DNA from: Schmidtea polychroa
Taxonomy: Eukaryota
Assembly (NCBI GenBank): GCA_044892525.1
Contig: CM097888.1
Span: 46,252,001 to 46,316,000, forward strand
Reading direction: 5' to 3'
Length of the DNA stretch: 64,000 nucleotides
Part shown: one piece after another, positions 4,274 through 28,485 of the stretch
Position numbering within the stretch: the first letter of the stretch is position 1
How the letters are laid out: each line of letters starts with the position of its first letter
Notes under the pieces: generated by a model
Told to the model about the DNA's origin: nothing
The model's database searches: none
The model's input: the letters and a program-made list of their open reading frames with translations, nothing else
Program-made: the position numbers and the translations under genes

Positions 4274-5662
4274 ATGGATAAACGACAAAGAGAAGAGTTC
4301 AGAGAGATTGTCGAGCAAATACGAAAATCTACAACGATCAGAATACACAAACATGTTATGTGCGGAATATGTGAAAAGTTGTTAAAGGAACCTCACCAAA
4401 CTCAATGTGGATGCAGAGTATGTAAGGAATGTATCAGTGAAGCAATAAAGAATAGACCACAGCGGTGCCCGGTGTGTAAAGAGACACTAATATCGAGTTT
4501 AGAAGACACTAACGAGGATAAAGCCGCAGTGAAAGATATGTTAAACACCAACCTGGGATGCAAAAATGCCCCATGCGAATGGAAAGGAGTAATCTGGAAG
4601 GTAGTACAACATATGGGAGAATGTATGTACAGAATTGGCCAGTGTGAAAGGTGCCATAAAACCATTCGAGCAAGCGAAGAAAAAGAGCATCAAAGGCAGT
4701 GTGAAGAGAGATTGGAAAGATGTGAACATTGTGGAGAAATAGACACGTGGAAAAATCTCACCCTCAAACATCACAATGTCCAAGAGGAGAAAGTATGTGC
4801 AGAATTCAGTGGGGAATGCCCAAACGGATGTAACCAAGGGGAAATAATGAAAGTGGCACAGCATCTAAGGGAATGTGAAAGGAAAAGAATGACATGTGTA
4901 CTAGGTAAATGGGGTTGTCAGAAACTACTACACCGAGGGGAGTTACCACATCATTTAGTAGAAAATGCTTCAACCCACGCAGAAATGTGGTCGACTGCGT
5001 TACAAGAAAGCGAAGAGAAAATAAAACAAATGGAGATAGAGATAACATCGTTGAAAGTGTTAGTCAAAGAACTACTAGAAGAAAGGGAAGCGTTCGAAGA
5101 AGCCCGAGCAAACATAAAGATGCAAATAAACCGAATAGAAATCAGTAATAATCAGGCCAAGGAGCTACATCAGAAAATACGGGAAATAAATCTAAATGAA
5201 GTAATACCAACAGCACCCTACATATGGAAAATAACGGGAGTAAAAGAAAGAATACGAAAAGCAAAAACCGGAGAAGAGACAAGAATAACAAGTCCTGCAT
5301 TCCATTCTTGGAAAAATGGGTACAAAATGAAAATGAAGATATATCCCAACGGGGACGGAACCGGATTAGATACGCACTTTTCGATTTTCTTTCTGTTATG
5401 TAAAGGGGAATACGACGAAATAATAGAGTGGCCGTTCCAGGCAAAAATCGATATTGCACTAATGAATGACCGAAGCATCCACGAACAAAGCTTCAAGACA
5501 ACTGGAAACCAAATGTGTTACCAGAGACCTACGGAAGAAGAAGGATCAGCAACAGGAGCACCTACGTTCATCCTACAACAAAAAGTAGAAGATATGGCAA
5601 GAAATGACACGGTGTATATCAAGATGACCGTGAGGAAAGAGGAGAAGGGTAGAACGGAGTAA
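4274..5662 (+). CDS. TRAF-family protein (RING, TRAF zinc fingers, coiled coil, MATH/TRAF-C), intronless
   Basis: RING CGICEKLLKEPHQTQCGCRVCKECI...CPVC and repeated Cys/His zinc fingers. MATH motifs YIWKI, SPAFHS..GYKM, IYPNGDGTG..THFSIFFLL.KGEYDEIIEWPF and NDTVYIK. Confidence 0.95.
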   Translation: MDKRQREEFREIVEQIRKSTTIRIHKHVMCGICEKLLKEPHQTQCGCRVCKECISEAIKNRPQRCPVCKETLISSLEDTNEDKAAVKDMLNTNLGCKNAPCEWKGVIWKVVQHMGECMYRIGQCERCHKTIRASEEKEHQRQCEERLERCEHCGEIDTWKNLTLKHHNVQEEKVCAEFSGECPNGCNQGEIMKVAQHLRECERKRMTCVLGKWGCQKLLHRGELPHHLVENASTHAEMWSTALQESEEKIKQMEIEITSLKVLVKELLEEREAFEEARANIKMQINRIEISNNQAKELHQKIREINLNEVIPTAPYIWKITGVKERIRKAKTGEETRITSPAFHSWKNGYKMKMKIYPNGDGTGLDTHFSIFFLLCKGEYDEIIEWPFQAKIDIALMNDRSIHEQSFKTTGNQMCYQRPTEEEGSATGAPTFILQQKVEDMARNDTVYIKMTVRKEEKGRTE

Positions 5663-5855: not shown

Positions 5856-6911
5856 ATGACACAAGAGAAACTAACCGAAACAGCGATAGCCCCAACCAAT
5901 GTCAACAAGACACAAATTCCCCGAGAACATAACAAAAAATGGAACAAAGTAATGTCCCAACTAACTAATCTCACCCGAAATCACATCGAAGAAGCTAGAG
6001 AGGATGAGAATAGTCAATACCAATGGTTAATACACAACTTAAGAGCGGAAGCAGATGCATGCAAAAGAGCATCAAAATGGGCGTCACTAGAAAATACCCG
6101 CCAAGAAGCACACAGCCACTACTTAAAGCAGCTAGTGCAGGAAGCGAGAAAGAGACTTACCGATGAGAACACCAAGCGCGAAGCGGAAAAACAAATAGAA
6201 GAAAGGAAAATGATGCACTTAGTGGCAGAAGCGAGAAAATGGAAAAGACAAAGCAATGAAATGAAAAAAGAGATGAAAGAATTGCCCATGAGACTCGGAT
6301 ATGAGAGCGAACAGGGCAAATGGGAGGAGAACTTAATAATAAAGGAAGAATTGAAACGGTTGAGAAAGGTCGCCGCCCGAAGTCAAACCTGGCAAACAAA
6401 GGCTATGGAATTTGAGCGACATTTGGCAATAAAATGCGACATAAGAGAGCACGAGAATGCCGCAATGGAAGAGATGATAACCCAACAAGCAGGACGGATT
6501 GTGGAATTAGTAAATCAGGTCGAAGAGATGAAAAGAGACCTTAATGGATTACAAGGATCGTTAGAACAAAGAAACATGGTCCTAGCGGGAAAAAACAGAA
6601 AATTAGAAAACGAGAGGAAAATGTATACCGAAAATATCAAAAACTTGGAAATAGAAATTGAAAAATGGAAGGGCGACGAGAAAATCAAGGCCTTAGATAG
6701 ACAAGTAGAGGCGAAAGACGAAGAGACAAGGTATCTCACTTATCTGCTCGACGAAGAGCTGAATAACACTCGAGCTCTAAGAGACGAAGTTAGTGAATTG
6801 AGAGCTCAAATCCCCCAATATTACCTACCCTATGACCCTATTGCGATACAGCTGCATCCAGCGGTCGATAGTGACGAAGGTTATGTGGGACAGGAGGAAA
6901 CCTTCGTATAA
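5856..6911 (+). CDS. Long coiled-coil protein (351 aa), unknown function
   Basis: Uninterrupted ORF with E/K/R/L-rich heptads and periodic Trp. Confidence 0.75.
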   Translation: MTQEKLTETAIAPTNVNKTQIPREHNKKWNKVMSQLTNLTRNHIEEAREDENSQYQWLIHNLRAEADACKRASKWASLENTRQEAHSHYLKQLVQEARKRLTDENTKREAEKQIEERKMMHLVAEARKWKRQSNEMKKEMKELPMRLGYESEQGKWEENLIIKEELKRLRKVAARSQTWQTKAMEFERHLAIKCDIREHENAAMEEMITQQAGRIVELVNQVEEMKRDLNGLQGSLEQRNMVLAGKNRKLENERKMYTENIKNLEIEIEKWKGDEKIKALDRQVEAKDEETRYLTYLLDEELNNTRALRDEVSELRAQIPQYYLPYDPIAIQLHPAVDSDEGYVGQEETFV

Positions 6912-7024
6912 GGGTGAATAAAAAGATAAAAACAAAAATCGGGACGTATATCCCAAACAAAAAAATTAAAGTATTGTAAAAGTATTCAAGGGACTGTAAC
7001 CCGAACTATTAAAATTTTATATAA

Positions 7025-7786
7025 ATGCATAAGTATAAGTCGCACTATAGCGCACCATTAACTGTACATATTACAGATATGAAAATCGAGGAAATAATAG
7101 AAATTACGAGCGACGTGGAAGAGGGAGAGATTGAGGCAGAAACAACAGAAACACAAACGTTAAAGGCCAAGTTACGGGAAGAGAGGGACGAAAACGAGAG
7201 ACTAGTAAACAATTATATAGAAGACCGAAAAATGATTAAAATACTAAAGAAGGAGTGCGAAGCGTTAGGAGAAATAAAGAGAGAAGCTGAAGAGAAGAAT
7301 GAATGGTTGCAAGAACAACGAACACGAGGAAGAAACTGGGAAAAGATTGCAGAGGAACTATGGCAAGAGAGGGCAAGCTTCAAGGCAGAAGAAGTAATCC
7401 AAGATTATTGGAAAACAGAGGCGAAAGAACACCAAATAACTATAAATAAATTAAATCGACAATTGGAGGAAAAACAACGAGAAAGTGAGGAAATGAAGAA
7501 ATGGATTCGCAAGTACCAAGAGATCGAGAGAAAACAACAACAACAACAACAACGAAACCTTTCGCAGGAAAACGAACAAGATTTCCTACAAATCGAACTA
7601 AAAAGGAATCTCGACAAAAAACGGGAAGAAATTAAGAGACTGAAAAAGGAGATAAGGCACATGAAAAGGGAGGCCCGTGAAAAGAACAGACAGTTGGAAA
7701 TGCTGCCCGAGTTAAGACACAGAGTCATTAAAGCGGAATCCACCCTGATGAGAATCGCCGAAAATAACCCAAACCAGAATCATTAA
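7025..7786 (+). CDS. Coiled-coil protein (253 aa; likely start ATG 7079) with short polyQ
   Basis: Uninterrupted E/K/R-rich ORF with a CAA run. ATG 7079 follows TTACAG-AT. Confidence 0.72.
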   Translation: MHKYKSHYSAPLTVHITDMKIEEIIEITSDVEEGEIEAETTETQTLKAKLREERDENERLVNNYIEDRKMIKILKKECEALGEIKREAEEKNEWLQEQRTRGRNWEKIAEELWQERASFKAEEVIQDYWKTEAKEHQITINKLNRQLEEKQRESEEMKKWIRKYQEIERKQQQQQQRNLSQENEQDFLQIELKRNLDKKREEIKRLKKEIRHMKREAREKNRQLEMLPELRHRVIKAESTLMRIAENNPNQNH

Positions 7787-7842
7787 ATTAAGGGTCACTA
7801 AAACCAATTGTAAATAAACCATAATGAATGTATAATAGTATC

Positions 7843-8720: not shown

Positions 8721-11700
8721 TGTTGGGCTGAGTCGAAGGGTAGTTGGGAATTAGGGAAACTGAACTAAAATAAAATAAAAAATAAAAACAAATAAATTGA
8801 CAAATAAAATAGAATAAAACATAAGAAAAACAATAATTAGAAAATAAGAATTAAAACAAAAATATAAAGATGAGAAAAATTAAAATAAGACAATAGAATG
8901 ACAGAAAACAACGTAAAATATAGTAAATACTAAGAAAATTAAGGAAAATAAATAAAAACATAATTTTAATAAAGAAAGTAAGAAGAAATAACTCGAAAAC
9001 AAAGAAAATAAATTAAATTAATAAAATTAAGCGGTACTCAATTCTAATTGGTCCGCGCAAACAAAAAATTAATATATAAGCAGGCATTAAAAACATAACA
9101 ATTACTGTTAATCAAACCACCTCAATAGGTAAGTGAAATTTAAATAACTGTGACGGTTAATCAAACCCACCTCAATAGGTAAATCTATTCTACGACGGAA
9201 CAGAACTCCAGCAACTAACGCACGATAACTCACGAGGACAATTCCAAGATTCAAAAGATTTTTACAGAACTAGACGACACTCGAGCATTAACTGATTCGA
9301 CATAGTACCCTTTTCGACTCAGCCCATACTTGTATCAATCATTCGGTAAGGATTTTTGATTGCTTATTTTGGATTTTTAAGTAATGCGTATAGTTCAATA
9401 ATATTCTTAATTTAAAAAATGGTTTTTCTTTTCGTTTGATGTTAGAATGCTTTATTTAAATTAATAATTTGCTTAATAATAAATGATTTGCTCGTTCAGA
9501 ATTATCGATCTTTTATGAATTAATTTTTATGAATTATTATTGGAGACCATTCAATTTGGCGAGAAACGTGGCGTTGAGATACTCTATGTCATGGTGTGAG
9601 GTGCCTTCGGGAGCTCCACCGGTGGACATAGGGTATTTCAATCACGCAGCTAGATTGGGCCGAAATGTGAGGGCTTCTTCACGGGTCCAATCGCTGAAGG
9701 TGCGACTAAAATCTATAGGTAAATGGGAGCCGAAATTGATAGTCATGTAGTGATTGAAAACAAAGATATGTAATAAAGGAATCGGAAAATTTTGATATAT
9801 TCGCGTAGTGATTGAGGGTGTCACACTATCGTCTTCGAATATCGGTTTTGCTAAGCCTAAATTTTCTCTATCATCAATGTAAGTCGTGTGTCAAAAATTG
9901 TTCAAACCTTAGTGAGGCTATCTGTGACATATCTTCGATGTTCATACTTTTCACTCAGAATCTGTTCCGACCAATTTTTAGCCTATGACCTTCGGAACTG
10001 TTATTCCGTTCATCTAAAAGTTCTCTTAAAGACATAGTTGCCAGGAAGTCAAAGTAGATTGCTTCATACAAGTATTAGGTTTACTCGAAATGACTGCTTG
10101 TAAATAAAGAGTAGAATCAGGTAAAATGATTTAATCCAAATAGTTATTCAGAATTGCATAAAACGAGTTCGTTCCAAATAAAAGTTTAAATTACATAAAA
10201 TGATTCGCTATCATAATTTTTTAGAATTTTATATAAAAGGAGTTACATACAATTAATTATCATAATCACATAAACTATTGGCATCAAATAATTTAAAATT
10301 GAAAAATGCAACCAATGCGAGCCACGAAAAATATATTTCTTCAAGTTAGCCGATGATCTTGTTAATTAAATATAAAATTCCAGTATTTCGTGGGGTTGGC
10401 AATCCAGCAGGGATAGGTAGAAATCCTCCAGCACTTAGAGAGTAGATCGATAAACTAGGTTTGAGGAATTAAAGACGAAAAATCCACCCTTGGAGCAAGC
10501 TATATCCAACATTTGCAATACAGATAATTATAATTTTTCCAATAATCCGGTGAGAATTAGTAAATCAGCGCCATATGCAGGAGAATTGTGAGTGATTACG
10601 CGATAGATAAAATTCTGAGAAAATGACATCTTGCAAACATTTAACACCTACAATTGTAGTATAATTAAGTGTGTGACAGCACACCCTGCATGCGTCAGCA
10701 GTTACAGACTCACCTAGTGGCCAAGTACAGTGGGCAAAGTCACACACGCCTCTACTCAGGAAAAATCCGACGAACATACCAGATGGAATTTCTATTAACC
10801 AATTAGACTACCGACAGGTATCATATTTCACCGCTCCGGATTAATAGTCAACCACCGGGCTGACATTTCCTTATCTACCTAGCAGGAATGGTCGGCTACT
10901 AGCTCACATTGATACTGTGCTCAGTTATCATAAAGACAATATTTTTTTTTTGTGCTAAACCCGATCGTAATTATGATTATTCTCTCTTTATTATCGTAGA
11001 ATGAATGGCACGGAAATTATGTCATTTTTGACATAATTATCATTAATATTAATGTCGAATATTATTAATAAATAATATTTAAACCAGGCAAAACACATGT
11101 GAATAATTAGAGAGAATGAATAAATAATTAAAAATTTAAATAGCCTTCCGTTTATCCTGTAGGAATTAATCAACAGACATTATGGACCCCTTTTCCATAG
11201 ATAGTCACTCGACCCCAGTACATGATACCCTCATCAAAATCACTCGTACGGGGGGAGAAGTCAACAAGGTAACTCGATTCTCGGTAAACGTGAAATAATG
11301 ACTTCAAGCGGATTGACTAAATAATCAATTTTCGTCGATCTAGAATTCCTCTCACTAATAGTATTACCTTCCTTTCCGTGTACGGAATCTGGTTTGATCG
11401 ATTTATCTTCTTATAATCAAAGACCCAAAAGGTATGAGAATCCATCGTGCAGTAGTACTTGTCTTGACTGGTAAACTCATATTTTTGTCTATGATCAGTA
11501 AAGTATGAATGGGGTCAGATGGTGACACTCCCGTTGAGTTAATTATTTTCATTTTTCATTTTTTTTCACAGTCACTCAAAAATGTTGCCAAATTCCAAGA
11601 CCGTTCTTCGACCTTGTTTTTCTTGCTCCGACAAGAATTCAATTATCAAAGAGCTCCAGGCCCAAATCGGAAAGCACAAAAGAAGGATAGATGAGTTGGA

Positions 11701-12893
11701 GGGGACATGGTTTAGTCCCACCCAGATGAAGGAGGCTCAGAAGAAGCTGCATCGAAGCGAGCACTGTAGAGACGCGTTGATTTCCGAGAGTCGGGCGCAG
11801 AGGAGCCTGATAAAAGAGCAGTCGGAGGCGCTGCACAAATTATACGTTGCAGCAGCTACAAGGAGGATCGCGAAGATCCCAATTAATGAAGCCAGTAATC
11901 TTTTCCCAGCACATCATGATATCTCTGGCGGATCTTCTTCTCCAGTCGGAAAGTCCTGCCATGGGTGCGTAGAGACCGAGCTCTCACCTAAAGAACCAGA
12001 AATCATCTTTACCGGAACCAGTAAAGCGTTACCTGTGATGGCATCTACCTCTGCAGCACCCCCGACCAATCCAACGGCATCGAAGCCAAAGCGTCGGCAA
12101 TTATCGAGAGCCGAACGCAAAAGGAAACAGCGGGAACGCGTAACCGCCAAACAGAACCAGCAATCGTCGGATCATCTAATCAAAGTCATCAACCCTCCTG
12201 CAGTAATCGATTTAGCATCAGTGATCTCAGGGCGAATCATCTCCGCCGCTGGGGTTTCCTGGGAGGAAAATGCCTCTGAATTTTTCGACTTGGAAGATCT
12301 GTTGGCAGACTCAGAGTGGGAGAAATGAGAACTTCTCCGTAACAAGTCTTCGTTCACTGAAATGACCCGAACATTGTCGGATAACATTTTTACCTTTGTT
12401 TCTTTTCCTGTGGTCGTAACTTTTATTGTATAGGTGTTAGGTATATTTGTGTGATAATCTTAATAATAAACCATTTTGTCTGCATACGTTTCCTTTTGTG
12501 TTCATCCTAGGACAGTTGAGTTGAAATTGGTGAAGGGTATTGAGAGTCATAAAACTAGGAGGAGCATTAGTCAGTTGGCAAACTCAGCTAGAAACATTGC
12601 GATGGGGCGACGGAATGAGTAGACGTAAGTCCTTCTATCGGCAGTCAGGGTTGGGAAGTCGAGGCCCCAGTAAGGAGTAGTCCGGAGGAGCTGGTTCACC
12701 TGCTTACTGGCGTCTCGCCGGCATAGCACAGTTCCAACGTGAAGCAATTCACGGGTGCTATGTTGGAGTGTAAGTTATGTACGGGTCCCGCTCGGCGATG
12801 ACCAAATAAATGATGGGCGAAATCGAGGTGGCATTCATCCTCTAGACTAAAGTTGCACTAGAAAGGGGTCATCCGAGTAGTGTACCCGCAACA
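8721..12893 (+). repeat. Putative long terminal repeat (~4,173 bp), shared between adjacent copies
   Basis: Starts TGTTGGG and ends CCCGCAACA, 7 nt before the PBS. Preceded by the hairpin AATTGCG-GGA-CGCAATT (8683-8699). Contains TATATAAG (~9073), a 26-bp direct repeat (9107/9156) and AATAAA (~12466). No canonical PPT, so the 5' edge is uncertain. Confidence 0.6.
11582..12328 (+). CDS. 248-aa orphan protein inside the putative LTR (N-terminal CxxC, coiled coil, basic segment, acidic C-terminus)
   Basis: Intact ORF preceded by a strong poly(T)-CACAG acceptor-like site. A diverged homolog at 58393-59144 (-) supports coding status. Confidence 0.8.
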   Translation: MLPNSKTVLRPCFSCSDKNSIIKELQAQIGKHKRRIDELEGTWFSPTQMKEAQKKLHRSEHCRDALISESRAQRSLIKEQSEALHKLYVAAATRRIAKIPINEASNLFPAHHDISGGSSSPVGKSCHGCVETELSPKEPEIIFTGTSKALPVMASTSAAPPTNPTASKPKRRQLSRAERKRKQRERVTAKQNQQSSDHLIKVINPPAVIDLASVISGRIISAAGVSWEENASEFFDLEDLLADSEWEK

Positions 12894-12900
12894 TAATTTT

Positions 12901-12918
12901 TGGGGGCTCAGCCGGGAT
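12901..12918 (+). promoter_or_regulatory. Primer-binding site, tRNA-Pro
   Basis: TGGGGGCTCAGCCGGGAT matches 16/18 of the classical tRNA-Pro PBS TGGGGGCTCGTCCGGGAT and follows ...CAACA-TAATTTT. Confidence 0.9.
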
Positions 12919-13216: not shown

Positions 13217-13702
13217 ATGACGGAATTCAATGATCAGATACAACAACTAATCAACTTCATAAACATCGAGAATGACTCCCTTAAAACGCTGACACAAAAG
13301 AGAGAAAGAATTAACATCATACTACTCCAAGCAATCGGGCAAACACCAGCCGTCCCCAACCACATGTTATTAGCCACAGGACTAAGTCACCCAGATGGGA
13401 AGGTAAACCCGGAAACCGTGTACCAATGGTATCAAGAGAGATTGAACCACCCAGCATTAAATCTTGATTATCAACGTATAAAAGATCCCTTAAATACCAT
13501 ATCAGATACAATCGAGCGGAAAATACAAGAAAAACTGACTCTACTACGAACTTGCCTTGCTTGTAAACTTCGTCCTATTCGCGTACTGTTTTTGCCGTGT
13601 GGACACCTCAGTCACTGCGAAGAATGCGGGAACGAGCTAACAAGATGCACGATATGTAAGCACGAGATAAAAGAAACTCATATGGTCTACTATGGTGAAT
13701 GA
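13217..13702 (+). CDS. RING-finger protein (IAP/MDM2-type C-terminal C3HC4 RING), putative E3 ligase, in the 5' leader
   Basis: CLACKLRPIRVLFLPCGHLSHCEECGNELTRCTICKHEI at the extreme C-terminus. No BIR motif seen. Confidence 0.85.
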   Translation: MTEFNDQIQQLINFINIENDSLKTLTQKRERINIILLQAIGQTPAVPNHMLLATGLSHPDGKVNPETVYQWYQERLNHPALNLDYQRIKDPLNTISDTIERKIQEKLTLLRTCLACKLRPIRVLFLPCGHLSHCEECGNELTRCTICKHEIKETHMVYYGE

Positions 13703-14637: not shown

Positions 14638-16008
14638 AGGCCTAGAAAAGCGAGAGATAGCAGTTAAGCTACAATGAGGTAATATTTAAATTACTAGTGA
14701 AATGGAATATTAAAGCTAGCTAGAACAAATAGAAGGTAATTACGAAAATTTGAGTTTAGAGAGGAAATAAACGAGCTCGTGGAAAAGATAATAAGATTAT
14801 AATGAAAAAGGAAAGGGAAGAAGGAAACGAATTAAAGAGATAATGGAAAATAAAGAATAGGCGAAACGATGATAATGAGTAAAGAGGAAAGTAACCAACT
14901 AATTAAAGGGACCCCAGTGAAGTAGAGAAACTCTACGGAATAATATTTTTCTTTTTTGGGCGAAGCGGGAGAATATATTTTATTGGTTCCAGAGTAGAAC
15001 CGAGTGAGATAATAGTAAATACGAAAAGTAAAACAGCGACAACCGCGCAAAAAGGACTAGGAAAACGAAAGGGGGGTAATAAGCAGTGACCGACAACGAC
15101 CTATTCCTATTATAAGTGATAAAAATAGATAATTATTACGACTCTATAGATAATTGTTACTACCCCATATAGATAATTTAAAATCGACGAAAATTTCGGG
15201 CTGATGGGAGATTATAACCCGCGGAAGTAATTGCATAAAAAATAGGGGAAGCATAAACAGAACCTAAAAGGTGTCTGTGTTTGAATGTTGCAGAAAGAAT
15301 GATGAAGTCGTGTAAGCAGATGCAACACGAGATCATTTTTTCATTTTAGATATCAAACCAATCCAGTCAACCAAGACAATCCAGAACCCGCACAAAAGGA
15401 ATTCGAAGAAATCGACAATCGACCAAGAATAAATCCATTCAGAACCCGCACCGAGAGACACAGCAACCGGAAGACTCCAGAACGGAAGAAGATACAGATA
15501 GCGACATCTCCAACTTCGAACGAATCATCGATATATTCAACCTCATAGTATTAGCAGCCATCTGTCAAGGACTAGTAAATCTCCTCAGAATCACAGTAGC
15601 AGATTCATACAGAATACTTATCGAAGGAAACACAATCAGAACTGAACTCGTCCAATTCAGTAGCCGCTAATTACCAAGAAGCGTAAGAAAGGAATCACGG
15701 ATAAACCCAATCTTAGATCTTCAAGTAAGCCAGGAGACGTATTATTTTCAGGAGACGAATTACAACAACTCAAAAGAGGACGATCTATTAAACATCAAAG
15801 AGGAATATCACAAGGATCAAGAAGAACCAATCAAGTACCTATATTTGACCAAGAAAATCTCGGATACACCCCTAGCCGATCTCGAAGCAGAGAAAGTCTG
15901 TCCGACATCACTAATAGTTTAGCAACGTCAACCGAGGAATTATCAGCCCAAAATTTAGTCACGTCACCGGATAATTTAAAAGAAACCGACGAATCTAGAA
16001 CACCAATC

Positions 16009-19900: not shown

Positions 19901-22900
19901 ATCAACAACCAACGAAACTAAACATCAAAGAAATCATCGACAACACTACGGAAACCGAAACGGATGAACAATTCCAGAAGCAAAGAGAACCAACGAAAGT
20001 AACACCAGAAGGTCAAACCGATAAAATAATAGATGAATGGAATGAGTGGCTAAGAAATAACGATAGCTCATTACCCAGAACGGATAACGAAAGAAATCCG
20101 AATTACGAAAATACCAGAGAAGCCGGAACGATGATGGAAAAACGGGCAAAAGGAAGACCTAAGAAACAAGGAGAAAAGTCTGAGTTCAAAACCAAAGAAC
20201 AATTAAAGCAAGAACAAGGGCAAGTTCGATTAGAAAAATTGGATAAAATAGTATGGGATCTAAAGGAAGCCCAACCAACGATCGAAAGAGGAGAAAAATG
20301 GATACGAGAATTGATCAAAGATATGTTAATAATAACAAACCCACAACTTAGACGTTTGTGGCAACGGAAAGTAGCCAGTACGGAAGCTAGACAATTATGG
20401 CACATCGTTTCGGGGATAATCCCAAAGTTAATCAAAGAGAAAACGAAAACCACCAAAACGGATTGGGATGAAACGAAGAGAGTGATTGCACAACTCACGA
20501 CAAATGCAAATGATGACGAACATCATCTAGTGGTAATCACGTATTTGATGTATAATTTGATGGGACTAGCTGCGAGGAAAATACCAAATAAACAGTTTGC
20601 AAATCATGTGGAAATGACCGTTTCAATCATAGAAAATACTATTGAACCACATATTATTCGTGCCGGAGGATGGAAAAGACTGATACAAGCGCCACGAAAA
20701 AATGAGCAAGAAAGGTCGATGCAAGTTAGATTGAAAAAACTGTTAAATGAACTAGAATGGGAACTACCGATGAAAGATCCCGCAAGCAGAAAAGCATCAA
20801 TAAATTCGTTAATGATGACTATGATGATATGGATGTTGTGCACAAGTGGAGCAACGGGTTTTACCATCTACGATTGTGATAATATGATAATGAGAGATAT
20901 ATACTCATTGAGAGACATAGAAGAATGCAGACAAGCATCACCCAACAAATTAGACATAGTAAGAACAAAAGTTACTTACCATGTATATCAGGAATCAGAT
21001 TTCATCAGAACGCAAGCAAGGGAATGCGTGGTATCAAAAAAGGTACTCGCATATTACTGTGGACAATATTCGTATTCGACTCTTATACTACCCGGCCTGG
21101 ACAAAGAAATCGTATCAATACAACGAGAGGACTGTAAAGAGCTATTTAGAACCGGAGCGTTAAAAATGCATAACGGAGTGACGATTCACGGACAAACTGG
21201 AATGATTAAAACCGAAAGTGTTTACGTATCCGGAAAAGTAAAATCATCAGATGGGTCATGTAACGGAGGTACGTATACGATCCGAGGCGAGGTAATATCG
21301 GGAGTAGTAGTGATCGAGTCTTATACGGTTGAATTAAAAGAATACGAAGCGCAATTTGACGCAAATAATTACCAAATGAAGACCAACCCAGCGTGTAGGG
21401 CTACAGAAAACGTATGCAGGACAGGAGTATCAACTATAATCTATGAAGCTAATACCCAAAAATGCCGACTCCAACTGTTAAAAAGTGCCTTGTTCAATGA
21501 AGTAAAAGGAGAAATATATGAGAACGAGAACGACGAGGATGGAAACGACAGGGTGAGAATGCGAAATGGAAAACCAATGCCACCATCTCCCAGAGAAAAG
21601 AGACTTTCAACGCAGAAGACACCAACAGCATTAATCACAGACGATCCAGATCTAGGTATGAGATTTATCAAAGAGAAAGAAACCACCAAATGTGACAGTA
21701 TAGTATATAAAACCAATTACGCAGGCATCTATATGTCGAGACAAATAATCGATAGAGCAGTGGGAAAGATAGCAACGGAGGACGTAAAACTATACTTATA
21801 TGCAAATAATAAAATGGATTTTCTATTTCATCGCGGACAAACGACCTTGCAAAAAGTATATTACGATCTGATACAAAACGATTGTTCATTGAATAAAGAA
21901 ATATTGAAAACAAAGCTAGCTATTGCGATAACGCACCCAGATAACACGATGCCATCACTCCCATTACCGGATGGACATTTTGGTAGAATGGTAGGAGAAG
22001 TAATGTACACATACCAGTGTACCAAGACGTATGCACGAATGCCAGAAAAATCTATACTACCCGAAAAGAGATGTGCAAATGAATTAGAAATCCGTTATAA
22101 AGGACAAAATCGATTCGTCCAACCAGTCACTAGAATTATGAATCCAGTGGGTTTCTACCCAAATCTCTTTAACTGTTCTAATGCATACGGACCTTTGTAT
22201 GAAAGGCCCGATGGGAAATGGATGATGTTACCGGGAAAAACCATATCCGAGGAGCCCAAGAAATTTGGATTAATAGAACTCGCCACAGAGCTGGATTTCA
22301 AACCTATAGACGTGTCAAACGGTGGTATGTATTCCCCAGAAGATCTAGAAACAGCACGACTTAACGTACTCTTCCCAGCCAGACGAGAATCCATTTTGTC
22401 AAATATGGTTACAATAACGGGGGGAACAAATTATCAATCAGGCCCGAATTACGAACTGCTACTATCGCCAGACCATTTTCAACAAGCCACGTCAAACATG
22501 ATGAAAGCAATGTGGGGAAGATTCTTAGTTTTTGGACAAATGATGGCCGGGATATTAGGGATCATACTCATAATTCAGATAGTCAGGGTAATATTAACAC
22601 AAATGTTAGCTTGTTTTGATATATACAAGCGGGAAAAGAAAGTAAATTGGAAAATGATAGTAGGCTTTCTACCATTTTTAGCAAAAACCATGGTATTACA
22701 TGGTCACTCAAAAGACATTCATCGGATAAAGCGATTGATTAAAATATTAACAAAGATTAAAGGAACCGACGAAGAAGTAGGCAGACGATTCCGGAAAGTA
22801 ATGTACGATGAAGCAACAAGACGACAATTGAAAAAGAATAAGCCAAAATTCTTGGACCGATTTAGAAGCCAATCATCTAACAGCGATAGTGACGACGATG

Positions 22901-25900
22901 ATAACGGGAACGACAAATGTCTATATCCAAACAGAAACCCAAACGAAAAACCAATGGAAACGGCACCATATTGGGAAAAGGAAAAGACAAATACCTGGAT
23001 CGCCAATGGAAGCTACATACCACCGGATATCGTGGGACCACAAGCAGCTTTGACCATGACACAAAATATGTATCCGCAATTACCAAGTCAACCCGGTATG
23101 CATTATATGCCAACACGACGTACCAAAAGTGTAGATCAAGCAGATGACGTAAGAACAATAGCAGCGATGAGTCTACCTGGAGGTCCAGCAGTAACAGTTA
23201 TGATTCGAATCAATGGTAAAGAAACCAATGCTATGATAGACACCGGAGTTAATGTATCAGCGATAGCGATTAATCAAATCCCCAGTAAACACTGGAAAGA
23301 TATCGAATCAACAACAATTCACATCATAGCATGTAGTAAAGAAACAGTGGACGTGGTCGGAAGATGGTGGACTACTTTGAGATACCAGGACAACGAAATT
23401 GAAACGTATTTGGCAGTAATACCAAAACTTAGCGTACCATGCATAATCGGAACGGATTTGATGCCAGAATTGTTAAAAGAAGTCGTAATTGACTTAACAA
23501 CCATGTGTTTAAAAGACAAAACCGGTAGAATATGCAAAATGAATGCAGTCATCAGATGTCCAGAAAAAATAATAGTACCAGCAAAATCGCAGATGATTTG
23601 TCAGATAAAAGTGGATACGGGTATGGAAGGAGAAGTTATCTTTGAACCAAGCAAGTCATTTGAAAAGCGACGAGAATTACCACTCGCAAGAGAAATAATC
23701 ACAATAAACCAAGAAGGAGTGATACCGCTCAACATCACGAATTTCGAAGAGGAAGACAAAATCATTTATGAGAACGAAAAATTGGGAAGATTGACCCCAA
23801 TGATGGACATAGAATTACCGAAAATGACCAACGAGATGAGCAAAGATGATGAATTATGGACAATAGATAGTATGTTGTTGACGAATGATGAAAAGAAAAA
23901 ATTGCACCGATTGTTGGTAGAATATAAAGATATATTCGCCATCTCAGATTTAGACTTGGGTACATGCGATGTTACCCTACATGCAATACCCCTCATAGAT
24001 GAAACTCCAATTGCATTAAGACCATACAAGCTAGCAGAAATGCAAAAAGAAATAGCCGAAGCAGAAGTACAAAAGATGCTGGACGCAAAAGTAATCGAAC
24101 CGAGTTGCTCACCCTGGCAATTCCCAGTGGTCATGGTAAAAAAGAAAGATGGCACCCAACGATTCTGTATCGATTATCGGAAGTTAAACGCAGTAACCAA
24201 GAGAGATACCTATCCATTGCCGGACATCAATGAGATGTTATTGATGTTGCAAGGGGCAGCATATTTTACTTCTTTAGATCTTAAAAGTGGATACTGGCAA
24301 ATTAAAGTCAAAGATGAGGACAAAGAGAAAACAGCTTTCACGTTGGGACGAGATCTATATCAATTCAGGAAAATGCCATTCGGACTAACCAACGCACCAG
24401 CATCATTTCAACGATGTATGAACTTTGTCACTCATGGAATCAAACAATGTATGGTATATATTGATGATTTACTAATCTATTCAGCGACATTTGAACAACA
24501 TCTGGAAGATATCCGAAACGTATTTATTAGATTAAGACAGTGGAAACTCAAACTCAAACCATCAAAATGCGATTGGGCAAAGGAAAAAGTCACGTTTTTG
24601 GGACACATAGTGTCAGCTAAAGGAAAGGAGCCAGATCCAAGAAACATTGAGAAAATAAAAACATGTCCAGCACCGAAAACTGTCACCCAAGTTCAGGAAT
24701 TTCTAGGATTATGCGGATACTATCGCAAATTTATCAAAAATTATGCAGGAATTGCAAAACCAATCCAGGAATTAGTAAAGAAGGACATTTCGTTCATTTG
24801 GGGGAAGGAACAACAAGAGGCGTTTGAAACGCTGAGAGATAAACTAATCGAAGCACCTATCCTCGTACACCCAGATTTTAAGAAGCCATTTCTATTGGCA
24901 ACGGATGCAAGCGGGTACGCGGCAGGCGCGATTCTGGGACAATTAGACGATGAAGGAAAAGAGAGAGTAATCGGGTATTACAGTCGAACATTCAAAAAGC
25001 ACGAAAAGAACTATTCGGTAACAGAACGAGAAGCATTGGCTATAATACAAGCTATCAAACACTTCCGATACTTACTATGGGGACATGAGATATGTATAAC
25101 CACAGATCATCAACCATTAGTGTGGTTATGGCAACATAAAGAAGCGTCCAGTAGACTGATGAGATGGGCCATGCAATTGCAAGAATACTCCCCATTTATA
25201 AAATTCAAAGCGGGAAGAGCAAATGCCAACGCCGATTGTATGTCAAGATTTATTTTTCCAGATTTGGTAGATTCAGAAATGCAAAGCATATGCTTAATAG
25301 TAGCGGAAGATTTGGATTTCTGTCAATTGCGAAAGGACCAACAAGAGGACGCGGAATTAAAACAAATTATCGATTATGTAAAAACCGGAAAGACAGATGT
25401 ATATGCGAAAGACCAAAAATTAAAAGAACATATGGATAAACACCAACACCGATATATTATAGAGAAAGATTGGTTGCTGATAATGGATGGGGAAAAACGA
25501 TTAATGTGTATACCGGAAAACCGACGAAAAGAGTTGTTAACGCAATATCACGATGGGAGATTGGGAGGACATATGTCATCGAAAAAGACGTTAGCAAGAA
25601 TGAAACAGAAATATTTTTGGCCTACGTTAACCGAAGACGTAACCGAATGGGTAAAAAATTGCCTAACTTGTGCGACCAGGAAAAATACTGGATCGAAATG
25701 GAAAGCACCTTTGACGCCAATGCCGGTACCAATAGAGCCGATGACGATGATATCCATGGACGTAGTTGGTCCACTACCAGAGTCAGATAAAGGAAATATT
25801 TACATTTTAGTGATTACCGACTTTCTCACGAAATTTCCAGAAGCATTCGCGATGCCAGACCAAAAAGCTAAAACAATCGCAAAAATTTTGGTAGAAGAGA

Positions 25901-28485
25901 TATGTTGCCGATATGGAACACCAAAACAGATATTAACCGATCAGGGAACTAATTTTATGAGTGAGATAATGAGCGAAGTAACGAACTATTTCAAAATCGC
26001 AAAATTGAGAACAGCACCGTATCATCCTCAAACCAATGGGATGACGGAAAGATTTAATGGAACACTTATACAAATGTTATCAAACTACGTCGACCGTCAC
26101 CAACGAGATTGGGACGAATATATAAACCTATGTCTTATGGCGTACAGAATGTCGATTCACGCATCAACGAAAATGAGCCCATTCAAATTAATGTACGGAA
26201 GAGAATGTAATATGCCAATGGACCTGGAATACCAACCACCGATATCGCAGTATATGGAGATCGATGATTATGTTACGAAATTCAAGGAAAGAATGCAAGA
26301 AATTTGGGAAACTGCGAAATTAAATATCAAGTTCTACCAGGAAAGTTATAAAGATTTACACGATCGAAAGAAAAACGTGAAGCAACATACGTTTCAAACA
26401 GGTGATTGGGTAATGATAGAAACCCCGGAATTAATTCCAGGAACCACAAAAAAGTTACAACGCAACGGAAAAGGACCATATGAGATCTTATTCGTAGGCG
26501 AAACCAATGTAAGAGTGAAATTGGTAAATAATCCATTCACCAGGCCAATATACGTAAACGTGGCACGATGTAAATCAATTCCAAAAACCGCCACCAGTCA
26601 ACCGGAAGGTCGAACATTAACCACACGTTCGCAAACCTACAAAATGAACATGATGCAACAACTCGCAGAACCGATCACTGGACGATTGGTCATACAACCA
26701 TCGGAAGCGGAAAAAATCGTACGAGAGGTAAAGACAAAATTACCCGGATGGGCAAAAGATCGATTAGATTTCGAAATATTAGGAGGATTATTGACGATGA
26801 TCGAAAACTATGCAAATAGAGAAAGGACACACCCATTATTGCGAGTAGTCAAAAGCCAATGGCCAATATTATTCACAATAACAGATCATTATGGAGACAC
26901 ACCATTACACAAACTCATGAAAGTAGGTAACAACGAGCAAATACTGGAAACAATAGAAGCATTTCACGACTGCAAGCGATCAACAGAACAAGAAAACAAC
27001 CAAGGTTACACACCATTAATGATAGCAGCAAACAGAGGCAAAACAAAAGACATCATAACCGCATTACTTGATACTGGATCAAAAATAACTACACAAGATC
27101 GCGAGCGGAAAAACGCACTACATCATGCTATCGAAGGGAAAAGTACCGAAGCGTTCACATCGTTGATGGAGTTACTATCATATGAGGACAATCAAGAAGT
27201 TGGAAACATGTATGATGGATTATTAACAGCGATCAAAGAGAAACTGACAACAATTACAGGAGTATTAATCACTTGGAGAAACCCAATTAGAAATAATTAT
27301 ATGATCAACGTAAACGAAGCATTCACGAAAGGGGAGAACACGCTTATGAGAGAAGCTATGAAAGGACATCATTTATTCGAAATCCCGAATCAATTGTTAG
27401 AACGAGGGATAACATTCACAAATCATAAGGATGAGCAGTTATTAAAAAAGCGAATAGACGCATTCGAAAAATCAATATTCCAATTTACTAACCAAGTACG
27501 GAATAAATATTGGGAAACGGTAAGTGTGTTATATATGATGGACACAATGAATAACATCCGCGAGAATTACCTGGATATTATCCAAATACTTACAGCAGAG
27601 GAACGAATCAATAATCCAAACGGAAAGAAAACGAAAATAAGGTATGGGAAATCAAGGGAACCAAAGTCGACAACGAACCAAACGGTCACAAACAACGTCA
27701 TCGAAACCAAATCAATGAGTATAGATCAAGAGGCAATAATACGCAAAGCAAAAGAAGTATTCTTCGAGGAAACGCTAGAGCTGTCAGACGAAATAATATT
27801 GTCAAAAATAATAAAAGCCGTACACACATACGCAAGAGATCAAACCACGGGTTTAGATATCGGGAAAATCAAAACCTTCTTGCCTCGAGCATTTACGATG
27901 GTGACGAAAGATTCAAGAACACCATTACAACAAGCAATACTAGCTGCAAAAGAGAATAGAGCAATAACGATCATAAGAATCCTTGGGGATATGGGCGAGG
28001 AAACCAACACGAAAAATGAACAAGGCGAAACCGCCATGATGTATGCAGCTATAACAAAAATACACCCAAAAACACTCCACATCCTACATCAATCAGGATC
28101 GAGACTAGACGAAAAATCAAACGAAGGGAACTCCACATTGGACTGGGCAACCATACAGCCAAACTTGGAAATGATCAGATTTATTTGCAAAAATGCGACA
28201 AAAGAAGAAGTTGAAAATATGTGCAAAAACACATCTCAATTTCAATGGAATACGGTACGGAAAAATCTAGAAGCAATGAAATTATTATTAACATGGAGGG
28301 TACCACAAAATAATAAATATGCGATAAACATAAACGAATTCTACGAAAACGGAGAAAACGCAATGGTAAAGAATACATTAACTAAAGGGGGGACACCAAA
28401 AATTATTTTAATAGTATTAAACAGAGAAGACCTCAAAATCAGAACGAGTTACAACGAGTTGGAAAACATCGTCGTATTCAATTGA
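16009..28485 (+). CDS. 4158-aa Gag-accessory-Env-Pol-ankyrin polyprotein
   Basis: Single uninterrupted ORF; domain motifs are listed in the sub-features. Confidence 0.97.
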   Translation: MTNVVKTDEYKEKFRGEPFNGNANKLATFITNFEVYITVCGWTPEAISKRMPLFLCDSALEVYLEAKERDTKLEKWEDIKTFLKKTFGASKPINQALGELANRKQRANESITLYASELRRLAKKAMNGKLPEENLIGYFIEGLRREEVRASVGCQMCKTLEEAIDWATRCELHLPAQMNIMQEEGRIMTAIAKADNGDNNNQEPKMNQFIPGAHQIFKPPQGRSNGNNGNRNNPNNENNFNNRRNMNDNKQCRTCGKPGHWDRDCYRNSNCNRCGRRGHTENVCQLRGCFNCGQPGHISRDCRERGQQQRPPQRNNNYMANPQRQSNPSEGKQMNVMQEISQMKQMMQQMMRPRPESAPQQTQNIRMMRSTENLNNYEVHQHVQEWQRLQAEEERIKQERNQQRQEQPLRINMMKLVKDMKSQYCYNYGKNPRVVPMTEPEKVTETTTEMKTENSTTILKGNPRIQKIFWKKIKDKIEKEHNKAKAETEDENNKSKEQTSQLNHQMLQELESEETTIFERKKLKRVPRMRNLQINMMKRTKDVASSDEEEDYVSSLGGEILQLNEISEPPKGEIKEEESESEITSGSEDEDIEIKLRKAREEAIKQVAEILPAVVRNQEFIDVIPFRRFVQKVMKLERNEKDLIPNEEKSIIKKYMEKMKQADTTRYVIKIGTSRGLERMWIKSTVTDELFDWIREHLGNSRKKEYLYQYQGEQIKPDMHLVDALIWPGETQILKLHKEKQPANLYDWAKDAKAEYDFNIKLKLEQIKQCTLRRNLDKLIKQIQEQVEDNWELLITRRAPAMYELMSRLRDTEMLRMSDWRTINLIHKYGRLKETQPQRLEITIWLPNEEKRRIKMSNRSTVDDLVSKINQEITEKVRSESSDGMVDDVVMMYDKIILRAEDDTSLSELGMWNNHQIIRIVPMDEFRTRDVIYQKEIRDRMKTLYQKSTEIIEIHQQWLKEKELQGKITKLSTRSCRRTPWERVWNAENKEWEIRKGIFVETDIGETESESEEEEEEPPEYEEEARGQTSDDESETDVTSESENEARHIHAMRKKEREYADMDGEEATEAREREEKERYKQLGDILAMGAKNQKRQVVALANIILKTSENIHNLRGMAKAIEEYRQYNEWYPEQLEQIIRKWRNQEWAQDTQERNHIRIKYPDKSIEELEVHPTTKIRELKKKLAYETPFHLQLFGKSLDDNADVGITPMRLEETNVLTMAETLGKPLKRKSKITKPTKSSLSTPSPNKAPSKSNETEEVEEIILEDSDDEPGERSPLLVRWPTGAEMWTNNQPSTSYQQPTKLNIKEIIDNTTETETDEQFQKQREPTKVTPEGQTDKIIDEWNEWLRNNDSSLPRTDNERNPNYENTREAGTMMEKRAKGRPKKQGEKSEFKTKEQLKQEQGQVRLEKLDKIVWDLKEAQPTIERGEKWIRELIKDMLIITNPQLRRLWQRKVASTEARQLWHIVSGIIPKLIKEKTKTTKTDWDETKRVIAQLTTNANDDEHHLVVITYLMYNLMGLAARKIPNKQFANHVEMTVSIIENTIEPHIIRAGGWKRLIQAPRKNEQERSMQVRLKKLLNELEWELPMKDPASRKASINSLMMTMMIWMLCTSGATGFTIYDCDNMIMRDIYSLRDIEECRQASPNKLDIVRTKVTYHVYQESDFIRTQARECVVSKKVLAYYCGQYSYSTLILPGLDKEIVSIQREDCKELFRTGALKMHNGVTIHGQTGMIKTESVYVSGKVKSSDGSCNGGTYTIRGEVISGVVVIESYTVELKEYEAQFDANNYQMKTNPACRATENVCRTGVSTIIYEANTQKCRLQLLKSALFNEVKGEIYENENDEDGNDRVRMRNGKPMPPSPREKRLSTQKTPTALITDDPDLGMRFIKEKETTKCDSIVYKTNYAGIYMSRQIIDRAVGKIATEDVKLYLYANNKMDFLFHRGQTTLQKVYYDLIQNDCSLNKEILKTKLAIAITHPDNTMPSLPLPDGHFGRMVGEVMYTYQCTKTYARMPEKSILPEKRCANELEIRYKGQNRFVQPVTRIMNPVGFYPNLFNCSNAYGPLYERPDGKWMMLPGKTISEEPKKFGLIELATELDFKPIDVSNGGMYSPEDLETARLNVLFPARRESILSNMVTITGGTNYQSGPNYELLLSPDHFQQATSNMMKAMWGRFLVFGQMMAGILGIILIIQIVRVILTQMLACFDIYKREKKVNWKMIVGFLPFLAKTMVLHGHSKDIHRIKRLIKILTKIKGTDEEVGRRFRKVMYDEATRRQLKKNKPKFLDRFRSQSSNSDSDDDDNGNDKCLYPNRNPNEKPMETAPYWEKEKTNTWIANGSYIPPDIVGPQAALTMTQNMYPQLPSQPGMHYMPTRRTKSVDQADDVRTIAAMSLPGGPAVTVMIRINGKETNAMIDTGVNVSAIAINQIPSKHWKDIESTTIHIIACSKETVDVVGRWWTTLRYQDNEIETYLAVIPKLSVPCIIGTDLMPELLKEVVIDLTTMCLKDKTGRICKMNAVIRCPEKIIVPAKSQMICQIKVDTGMEGEVIFEPSKSFEKRRELPLAREIITINQEGVIPLNITNFEEEDKIIYENEKLGRLTPMMDIELPKMTNEMSKDDELWTIDSMLLTNDEKKKLHRLLVEYKDIFAISDLDLGTCDVTLHAIPLIDETPIALRPYKLAEMQKEIAEAEVQKMLDAKVIEPSCSPWQFPVVMVKKKDGTQRFCIDYRKLNAVTKRDTYPLPDINEMLLMLQGAAYFTSLDLKSGYWQIKVKDEDKEKTAFTLGRDLYQFRKMPFGLTNAPASFQRCMNFVTHGIKQCMVYIDDLLIYSATFEQHLEDIRNVFIRLRQWKLKLKPSKCDWAKEKVTFLGHIVSAKGKEPDPRNIEKIKTCPAPKTVTQVQEFLGLCGYYRKFIKNYAGIAKPIQELVKKDISFIWGKEQQEAFETLRDKLIEAPILVHPDFKKPFLLATDASGYAAGAILGQLDDEGKERVIGYYSRTFKKHEKNYSVTEREALAIIQAIKHFRYLLWGHEICITTDHQPLVWLWQHKEASSRLMRWAMQLQEYSPFIKFKAGRANANADCMSRFIFPDLVDSEMQSICLIVAEDLDFCQLRKDQQEDAELKQIIDYVKTGKTDVYAKDQKLKEHMDKHQHRYIIEKDWLLIMDGEKRLMCIPENRRKELLTQYHDGRLGGHMSSKKTLARMKQKYFWPTLTEDVTEWVKNCLTCATRKNTGSKWKAPLTPMPVPIEPMTMISMDVVGPLPESDKGNIYILVITDFLTKFPEAFAMPDQKAKTIAKILVEEICCRYGTPKQILTDQGTNFMSEIMSEVTNYFKIAKLRTAPYHPQTNGMTERFNGTLIQMLSNYVDRHQRDWDEYINLCLMAYRMSIHASTKMSPFKLMYGRECNMPMDLEYQPPISQYMEIDDYVTKFKERMQEIWETAKLNIKFYQESYKDLHDRKKNVKQHTFQTGDWVMIETPELIPGTTKKLQRNGKGPYEILFVGETNVRVKLVNNPFTRPIYVNVARCKSIPKTATSQPEGRTLTTRSQTYKMNMMQQLAEPITGRLVIQPSEAEKIVREVKTKLPGWAKDRLDFEILGGLLTMIENYANRERTHPLLRVVKSQWPILFTITDHYGDTPLHKLMKVGNNEQILETIEAFHDCKRSTEQENNQGYTPLMIAANRGKTKDIITALLDTGSKITTQDRERKNALHHAIEGKSTEAFTSLMELLSYEDNQEVGNMYDGLLTAIKEKLTTITGVLITWRNPIRNNYMINVNEAFTKGENTLMREAMKGHHLFEIPNQLLERGITFTNHKDEQLLKKRIDAFEKSIFQFTNQVRNKYWETVSVLYMMDTMNNIRENYLDIIQILTAEERINNPNGKKTKIRYGKSREPKSTTNQTVTNNVIETKSMSIDQEAIIRKAKEVFFEETLELSDEIILSKIIKAVHTYARDQTTGLDIGKIKTFLPRAFTMVTKDSRTPLQQAILAAKENRAITIIRILGDMGEETNTKNEQGETAMMYAAITKIHPKTLHILHQSGSRLDEKSNEGNSTLDWATIQPNLEMIRFICKNATKEEVENMCKNTSQFQWNTVRKNLEAMKLLLTWRVPQNNKYAININEFYENGENAMVKNTLTKGGTPKIILIVLNREDLKIRTSYNELENIVVFN
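17998..19668 (+). other. Region with up to three ubiquitin-like (beta-grasp) domains (~17998-18216, 18523-18771, 19474-19668)
   Basis: HIRIKYPDKSIEELEVHPTTKIRELKKKL...LQLFGKSLDD and LEITIWLPNEEKRRIKMSNRSTVDDLVSKI...MMYDKIIL..DDTSLSELGM follow the ubiquitin pattern I.V...tI..LK..I...L.F.GK.L.D..tL...GI. The first copy is weaker. Confidence 0.6.
20290..20688 (+). other. Bcl-2-like helical domain (putative)
   Basis: TIEPHIIRAGGWKRL matches BH2 (W/HI...GGW). DEHHLVVITYL sits at the BH1 position with Bcl-2-like spacing to GGW, but NWGR is not conserved. Confidence 0.55.
20797..22704 (+). other. Envelope glycoprotein, chuvirus-G-like (putative class III fusogen), in frame between gag and protease
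   Basis: Internal signal sequence (..MMIWMLCTSGATG|F). Motifs recalled from chuvirus-type G: YDC..YSL.DIEEC, EC......YYCG, NNKMDF..C, GEVMYTYQC, GGMYSPEDL..LFPARR, WGRFLVFG..AGILGI(TM). Furin-type REKR at 21592-21603. Confidence 0.8.
23170..23538 (+). other. Retroviral-type aspartic protease
   Basis: AMIDTGVNVS (DTG at 23239) and IIGTDL flap/helix motif. Confidence 0.93.
23930..25260 (+). other. Reverse transcriptase and RNase H (Ty3/gypsy type)
   Basis: RT motifs SPW, RFCIDYRKLN, LDLKSGYWQI, MPFGLTNAPASFQR and YIDD (24457). RNase H motifs TDAS, YSVTEREALA and TDHQPL. Confidence 0.98.
25300..26580 (+). other. Integrase (HHCC, D-D35-E, GPY/F)
   Basis: HDGRLGGH..CLTC; D at 25759, D at 25939, E at 26047 (35-residue spacing); KKL...GKGPYEI. 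Confidence 0.97.
26656..28482 (+). other. Ankyrin-repeat region, two ~340-aa duplicated units
   Basis: GDTPLH, GYTPLMIAA, KNALHHAI, RTPLQQAI, GETAMMYAA and GNSTLDWA. LITWRNPIRNNYMINVNE..GEN and LLTWRVPQNNKYAININE..GEN lie 1020 nt apart. Confidence 0.88.

Follow-up and report, generated by a model that had tools for sequence, protein, structure and literature searches.

The 64,000 nucleotides of the planarian Schmidtea polychroa analysed here (GenBank assembly GCA_044892525.1, contig CM097888.1, positions 46,252,001 to 46,316,000 of the forward strand; hereafter the window) raise the question of what a retroelement gains from carrying domains that resemble the signalling proteins of its host. 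A preliminary description of positions 4274..28485 had placed TRAF, IAP-type RING, ankyrin (IkB-like), Bcl-2-like and ubiquitin-like (Ubl) modules in one element, and had proposed that they converge on a single pathway of innate immunity and cell death. In the part of PMC6431247 (2019) that was available, the cargo of the Burro elements of planarians is described as MATH_TRAF_C, BIR, ankyrin, BCL2-like and Ubi2/SUMO-like motifs accompanied by an in-frame env, and is proposed to meddle with apoptosis and ubiquitination. Both the cargo set and the apoptosis/ubiquitination hypothesis were therefore already in print; the selection and layering results given below are modest additions.

Organization of the element

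Positions 1-17138 of the window are identical, without a single mismatch, to positions 26182-43319, in a tandem array with a period of 26,181 bp. When 40 kb of upstream genome is added, the repeat is found to begin 17.4 kb upstream of the window and to end at 43319, within a third gag. One unit of the array measures 26.2 kb, and an element with both of its 4.17-kb LTRs measures 30.35 kb. The features of the array, all on the forward strand, are as follows.

4274..5662, +, full-length, intronless TRAF ORF of 462 aa, upstream unit (Pfam MATH and RING; TRAF3, TRAF2 and TRAF6 matches)
5856..7786, +, two coiled-coil-like accessory ORFs, upstream unit (ORFs with homologues in a sister family; twins at 32037-33967)
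8721..12893, +, LTR of 4.17 kb, TGTTG...CAACA, common to two tandem units (ends and junctions)
11582..12328, +, ORF of 248 codons inside the LTR (ORF list; dN 0.18, dS saturated)
12901..12918, +, primer-binding-site-like motif directly after the LTR, which we take to be tRNA-Pro-like
13217..13702, +, leader ORF of 161 aa, with a novel N-terminal part and a C-terminal IAP-like RING (zf-C3HC4_3, E 4e-11)
15664..28485, +, single gag-env-pol-ankyrin ORF of 4273 codons, first Met at 16009 (ORF list, Pfam)
16162..16923, +, Gag domain and CCHC zinc knuckles (Pfam Retrotrans_gag, zf-CCHC)
17776..18789, +, two candidate helix-bundle and Ubl modules, the first unconfirmed, the second weak (alignment, profile tests)
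19231..19698, +, four-helix bundle and ubiquitin-fold domain (profile and predicted fold)
20197..20727, +, Bcl-2-fold domain, BH2-like GGW kept, BH1 NWGR lost (profile, model fold)
20809..22629, +, moderately hydrophobic signal-like segment, then Monjiviricetes/HSV-gB-type env with a transmembrane segment (PF24664, E 1e-71; hydropathy)
23197..26223, +, protease, reverse transcriptase (RT), RNase H and integrase in Ty3/Gypsy order (Pfam)
26866..28443, +, two ankyrin-repeat clusters fused behind integrase (Pfam Ank_2, E 2e-16 and 6e-9; generic ankyrin matches)
28545..29849, +, signal-like and transmembrane ORF, which in unbroken copies is the C-terminal part of the polyprotein
30455..31843, +, TRAF ORF of the polyprotein's own unit, identical to 4274-5662 (repeat comparison)
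34902..43319, +, third LTR, leader RING and gag start, third unit, truncated at 43319 (repeat comparison)

Each unit thus runs from an LTR with its internal ORF through the leader RING ORF, a set of 74-bp repeats, the 4273-codon ORF and the signal/transmembrane ORF to a 128-codon ORF, the TRAF ORF, the two coiled-coil-like ORFs, a short transmembrane ORF and the next LTR. Within the long ORF, Pfam gives the order Gag, CCHC, Ubl modules, Bcl-2-like domain, env, protease, RT, RNase H, integrase, ankyrins. Given this order, and the LTR at 8721-12893 that lies between, the span 4274..28485 opens within one unit's 3' cargo and closes with the polyprotein of the unit that follows. The association of five module types is nevertheless real, with the twin TRAF ORF at 30455-31843 belonging to the polyprotein's own unit, although the span first described as one element straddles two.

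The family is young and numerous, as indicated by identities of at least 86% in all 150 scored TRAF matches. For comparison, 31 loci spanning the identity classes were fetched, 19 from 40 scored RING matches and 12 from the 150 TRAF matches. LTR pairs are 99-100% identical in all 16 loci examined for this (in two cases over ~500 bp only), and identical LTR ends recur in dispersed copies, with the primer-site-like motif directly 3' of the LTR in these as in the window. Eight of the 31 loci have an unbroken frame of 4730-4732 codons that takes in the ORF at 28545-29849, and 23 have none; in the window copy, frame breaks near 28.5 and 28.6 kb split off this C-terminal part of the polyprotein.

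The identity of the window units over 17 kb may mean that the tandem array is an artefact of assembly. Against this, a second array (G000:C4, 69.86-69.92 Mb) has the structure LTR-body-LTR-body-LTR within a single flanking 4-bp target duplication, and its units have 8 scattered differences between them. Several other pairs of TRAF matches lie 20-28 kb apart, which suggests that tandem arrays are common in this family.

Several further observations concern the LTRs and the remainder of the window. The histories of the LTR ORF and of the leader RING are weakly tied to that of the internal region across 20 copies; LTR types have been swapped without regard to the internal region, and the ORF at 11582-12328 is under purifying selection. 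A 50-bp segment (9117-9166) is present in the LTRs of the window and missing from the first LTR of the array, which also has two further substitutions. Downstream of the array are broken transposase-like frames with a BED zinc finger (48623-50322, minus strand; Pfam E 2e-8), presumably hAT-like; a MITE-like pair of 90-bp inverted arms 703 bp apart (51076-51958); and, on the minus strand at 58393-62572, three ORFs of 193-327 codons that are low in complexity and have no match in Pfam.

Selection on the cargo

All of the cargo is under strong purifying selection, and so it is not baggage. A region was counted only if a copy covers 60% of its codons, a threshold reached by 25-29 of the 31 loci for each cargo domain. 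Pooled pairwise dN/dS (27-30 sequences, the pairs of which are not independent) ranges from 0.06 to 0.19 in the cargo domains: 0.06 for the Bcl-2-like domain, 0.09 for the RING, 0.07-0.19 for the Ubl modules, 0.08-0.12 for the ankyrins and 0.08-0.17 for parts of the TRAF, compared with 0.02 for RT, RNase H and integrase and 0.05 for env. In one pair, formed by the window and a copy ~15% divergent from it, the cargo has dN/dS of 0.01-0.10 with bootstrap upper bounds below 0.2, versus 1.07-6.3 for frame-shifted controls of the same pair. The individual values for this pair are 0.04-0.10 for TRAF, 0.05-0.08 for the leader RING, 0.07 and 0.06 for the ankyrin clusters, 0.03 and 0.09 for the two candidate Ubl modules of 17776-18789, 0.06 for the Ubl domain of 19231-19698, and 0.013 for the Bcl-2-like domain versus 0.012 for integrase (RT and integrase both being ~0.01). 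The preliminary description had made its proposal depend on a cargo that does not evolve neutrally (dN/dS ~1), and in this respect it was right. Combined with the near-identity of the LTR pairs, selection indicates that a lineage active until recently has kept its cargo intact.

An immune kit does not stand out by its selection, however, because ORFs without immune annotation are under purifying selection as well: linkers, coiled-coil and membrane ORFs have dN/dS of 0.05-0.18, including 0.05 and 0.15 (one pair) for the two coiled-coil-like ORFs at 5856..7786.

TRAF and the leader RING

The TRAF identified in the preliminary description is confirmed as a complete protein with RING, zinc fingers, coiled coil and MATH domain in one ORF (MATH E 3e-26), whose nearest solved relatives are TRAF3, TRAF1 and TRAF2 (best TRAF3, E 5.5e-28). 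A homologue search gave one match for TRAF, and none for either the leader RING ORF or the Ubl/Bcl-2 region. The element TRAF shares a CGCxxC variant of the RING with five intronless host TRAFs at ~30% identity, all five of which sit outside any Burro context. Twenty host MATH exons form a starred clade of their own, separate from the TRAFs of the elements, in an unrooted tree that is open at its deep nodes and leaves the direction of transfer unfixed. These relationships are consistent with capture of the TRAF from a planarian host. The converse possibility, that the element seeded the expansion of host TRAFs, is not supported, given the separate clade of host MATH exons and the location of the intronless host TRAFs outside Burro context. 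Host MATH exons in a large cluster, mostly at 114-122 Mb of G000:C2, likewise fall in a clade distinct from element-borne MATH. Frames of 671-4846 codons contain 123 of the 150 scored MATH matches, and copies of the elements inflate the number of MATH domains counted in planarian data.

The C-terminal half of the MATH domain (window 31600-31800 and 5420-5620) occurs as three alleles 17-23% apart, swapped into copies that otherwise differ by 1-5%. The swapped 200-bp block was present in 3 of 14 copies picked regardless of TRAF, and about seven other bins of 91 behave similarly; with ascertainment controlled in this way, the allele block is one of several mosaic blocks. Diversifying selection on the MATH groove is not supported, as variable sites number 10 of 37 in the segments assigned to the groove versus 27 of 101 outside them.

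The leader ORF passes as a C-terminal IAP-type RING, its best solved relatives being the RINGs of cIAP2, cIAP1 and XIAP (cIAP2, E 3.7e-10). The designation as IAP-type holds for the RING only: the 161-aa ORF has no Pfam match to a BIR at E up to 1, in a library that finds the BIR of a sister family at E 1e-15, and it is through a BIR domain that cIAPs bind TRAF2. Across copies, the rank correlation of the leader RING ORF is 0.63 with the LTR ORF versus 0.35-0.40 with parts of the TRAF.

Ubiquitin-like, Bcl-2-like and ankyrin modules

The three proposed ubiquitin-like modules differ in standing. The module at 19231-19698 is supported both by profile (E ~1e-6) and by fold, its model (pLDDT 84.5) matching ubiquitin with Z 11.4 and an rmsd of 1.5 over 70 residues. 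The candidate at 18235-18789 is weak, with profile E values of 0.004 and 1e-4, of which the latter is no better than a reversed module-3 control; since this control reached E 6e-4 in hhalign, values near 1e-4 mean little. Profile tests gave no confirmation of the candidate at 17776-18228. There is no C-terminal di-glycine, the only GG in residues 701-1700 being the BH2-like GGW, and the Ubl domains are on this evidence integral domains rather than conjugatable modifiers. A four-helix bundle (window 19231-19465) is repeated with each Ubl domain, one to three times depending on the family, and may resemble the N-terminal domains of TFIIS; an Atlas search gave no usable match to the bundle, and fold searches barely tested it.

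The Bcl-2-like module is confirmed by profile and predicted fold. The domain by itself falls below the Pfam cut-off (E 0.07-0.08) and had no match when searched against the PDB as a single sequence. With a profile built from 10 natural sequences, Bcl-xL is reached at E 5e-5, and 9 of the 10 members match the Bcl-2 family of Pfam at E up to 1, the best of them at 2e-6. The model (pLDDT 72) yielded 40 listed Foldseek rows, all of them Bcl-2-family chains at E 4e-3 or weaker, with TM scores by query of 0.47-0.60 among the rows listed. The NWGR of BH1 is found in none of the 10 aligned sequences, and the window reads DDEHH in its place. When 1.84 billion representatives were searched with the profile, 12 matches were obtained: six continue into env, one has Gag, CCHC and Ubl upstream according to Pfam, three match Bcl-2 only and two match nothing in Pfam. 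Metagenome proteins P0005, P0007, P0008 and P0011 show parts of the element's domain order, and none of 10 representatives looked up carries a name. Separately, a cluster of seven near-identical exons of host-type Bcl-2, with NWGR intact, is located at 89.9-90.8 Mb of G000:C4.

The ankyrin repeats stand, whereas their likeness to IkB is unsupported. No IkB is present among the best 60 of 153 solved relatives of one cluster or the best 60 of 79 of the other, an absence that is compatible with mimicry because scores favour long repeat arrays. The degron D[ST]GxxS/T of the IkB type is absent from the polyprotein; DSGxxS is a feature of host IkB, and viral mimics are not known to carry it. The label 'IkB-like' thus appears to rest on no sequence feature of the ankyrins.

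Relatives of the element and layers of cargo

The element has an interior of ~25 kb, multi-kb LTRs and a total length of ~30 kb, env in frame between gag and pol, PR-RT-RH-IN, and a cargo of BCL2-like, Ubl, ankyrin and MATH/TRAF domains. By these features it is a Burro-type family, sister to a Burro1-like family and distinct from Burro1 itself; it may coincide with Burro-2, -3 or -4. The same genome holds the sister family, which encodes a 4791-codon ORF in which MATH precedes the last Ubl and also carries a TRAF ORF of its own, a leader RING, a single ankyrin cluster and a BIR-RING IAP (BIR E 1e-15). Its RT is 90% and its env 56% identical to those of the window family, and the two form a starred clade. 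The sister family agrees with what is described for Burro1, whose features include a MATH within the polyprotein and a BIR motif; both are absent from the window unit and present in the sister.

Three small LTR-bounded gag-env-pol families, of which one locus each was read fully, have RTs 48-51% identical to that of the window. Directly in front of the env signal segment they have a Bcl-2-like domain together with one or two helix-bundle/Ubl modules, and their LTR-bounded spans gave no match to TRAF, RING or ankyrin. One of them also has a 777-codon ORF behind the polyprotein that is exonuclease-like by eye. The cargo can be read from these comparisons as three layers: an older layer of one to three helix-bundle and Ubl modules and the Bcl-2 fold between Gag and the env signal segment; a layer of the giant clade, comprising ankyrins behind integrase, the apparently captured planarian-type TRAF, the coiled-coil ORFs and the leader RING ORF; and a layer found only in the sister family, the BIR-RING IAP and second MATH domain.

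Previously described elements are similar in several respects. According to the available part of PMC6431247, Burro1/GYPSM1 and Burro-2 to -4 of Schmidtea mediterranea, which trace to Jurka 2007 and Grohme 2018, are like the window element in their length of ~30 kb, multi-kb LTRs and one giant gag-env-pol ORF, in which env lies in frame and is flanked by the BCL2-like domain and protease. A Burro-like element of Dugesia tigrina in the same source has, like the window, a polyprotein without MATH and MATH_TRAF in a separate accessory ORF; its ORF encodes 5,140 aa with two zinc knuckles, and its accessory ORF is described as upstream, whereas the TRAF of the window is 3' of the polyprotein. Smed_errantivirus_1-6 of PMC13524379, also available in part, share the GAG-ENV-POL gene order and the HSV/gB type of env. 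By eye, the env of Smed_errantivirus_5 is the nearest listed to that of the window, number 6 is similar to the Burro1-like sister, and numbers 1-3 look like the small families; no listed env is identical to that of the window. In the main text, so far as available, the words Burro, Bcl, ubiquitin and ankyrin do not occur, and cargo is not discussed there.

Host-like modules are also borne by virus-like agents, among them the vankyrins of polydnaviruses, the ankyrin and Bcl-2-fold proteins of poxviruses and the IAPs of baculoviruses. The window element differs from these in that its ankyrins are fused into the pol polyprotein, its RING is without BIR, and neither a likeness to IkB nor an NF-kB target was found.

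Expansion of TRAFs in planarians has been reported (PMC6109357, PMC7586133), and no link to retroelements was found in the available parts of these papers; those of PMC13238120 and PMC11410931 had nothing further on the subject. No report of captured TRAF/IAP or Bcl-2-like cargo under selection in an LTR retrotransposon was found in the literature searched, although Grohme 2018, Jurka 2007 and supplements may hold more, and no functional test of Burro cargo was found in the sources available. BURRO1 RNA appears in the intestine upon knock-down of smedwi-2, and BURRO1 RNAi did not improve the smedwi-2(RNAi) phenotype (PMC8532177, available in part), so that nothing is on record there of an effect of such cargo on the whole organism. 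Two read sets guessed to be RNA contain 85-95%-identical pieces of TRAF and other 3' ORFs; set X1, however, also covers the non-coding flank in 30 of 30 bins, and set X6 barely covers gag, so that the two say nothing on expression either way.

Possible roles of the cargo

The interpretation favoured here, by a small margin over doubt, is that this is a young, multi-copy, enveloped Ty3/Gypsy element of Burro type whose cargo, under purifying selection, is a layered set of separate tools rather than the parts of one pathway, with TRAF and RING likely to damp host ubiquitin-dependent defence or cell-death signalling. The cargo would be likely to protect the cells in which the element copies itself. 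Hydropathy suggests that the polyprotein passes through the ER membrane at two places, the env signal segment, which is only moderately hydrophobic, and the env anchor; the Gag-Ubl-Bcl-2-like product, and with it the Bcl-2 fold, would then be left tethered by the signal segment. Lacking NWGR, the Bcl-2 fold would probably not bind BH3 peptides canonically. From separate ORFs, TRAF may act as a decoy or a redirected adaptor/E3 in the planarian TBK1-TRAF network and the leader RING as an E3 ligase, and the ankyrins may be generic adaptors. The part of PMC13563047 available states that planarian TBK1 induces TRAF2/3/5 homologues. Of the kit for suppressing immunity and cell death initially proposed, the role of TRAF and RING in ubiquitin or cell-death signalling remains plausible and agrees with the available part of PMC6431247, and the argument from selection is weakened by its equal action on non-immune ORFs.

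A reading in terms of particle biogenesis is possible, though clearly less probable. Ubl, RING, TRAF and ankyrins might control how the giant polyprotein of the element itself is turned over, directed to membranes and released with the help of ubiquitin, with the Bcl-2 fold as a membrane-binding structural domain beside env. This would account for Ubl and Bcl-2-like domains that keep one position, between Gag and the env signal segment, even in families whose RT identity to the window is as low as 48-51%, for a Bcl-2-like domain that lacks NWGR and yet is as constrained as integrase (0.013 versus 0.012), and for the location of the ankyrins between integrase and a second membrane-anchored domain; but the small relatives have spread despite having none of TRAF, RING and ankyrin, and the whole TRAF with its MATH domain and the BIR-RING IAP of the sister point to targets in host signalling. 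The original proposal, in which all five modules act on a single TNFR/Toll-TRAF-cIAP-NF-kB pathway, where the ankyrins would mimic IkB and the Bcl-2 fold would block apoptosis or NF-kB, is unlikely. It draws on domain types that are all real and selected, and on a leader RING nearest to cIAP RINGs among solved structures; the loss of NWGR is compatible with it because poxviruses have Bcl-2-fold proteins that lack BH motifs and yet block NF-kB. In the ankyrins, however, no IkB features were seen, the RING ORF has no BIR, the leader RING travels with the LTR (0.63) and less with TRAF parts (0.35-0.40), and the modules were apparently gained separately, Ubl and Bcl-2-like domains being present in small elements without TRAF, RING or ankyrin. 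As for the host, S. mediterranea is reported to have seven divergent RHD genes, which would favour a single NF-kB pathway, but no clear NF-kB, which would not (PMC13563047, available in part); a search of the S. polychroa genome for Rel homology gave no match and is uninformative, since its control gave none either. The convergence appears to rest on vertebrate and insect analogies that sequence and host context leave unsupported. Least probable by far is a cargo that was captured and is neutral, or one that the host has domesticated: the break near the 3' end of the window copy and the 23 of 31 loci without an unbroken 4730-4732-codon frame might suggest as much, but dN/dS far below 1 between subfamilies largely refutes neutrality, and the cargo stays inside young, dispersed, LTR-bounded copies.

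A bolder version of the layered interpretation is offered tentatively, as a possibility on a par with particle biogenesis. The core of the gag-env-pol lineage would be a non-canonical Bcl-2 fold anchored by the env signal and accompanied by helix-bundle/Ubl repeats; the TRAF and E3 RING of the giant clade would block an NF-kB-independent TBK1-TRAF defence; and the three deep alleles of the MATH C-terminus would reflect an arms race with the expanded host TRAFs. If this were true, the cargo would be a ready-made probe for anti-retroelement signalling in planarians. Retrotransposons with a host-modulating gene set of viral size are rare, and since every module is under selection, the cargo matters to the element. 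It may therefore offer a usable handle on the innate immunity of planarians.
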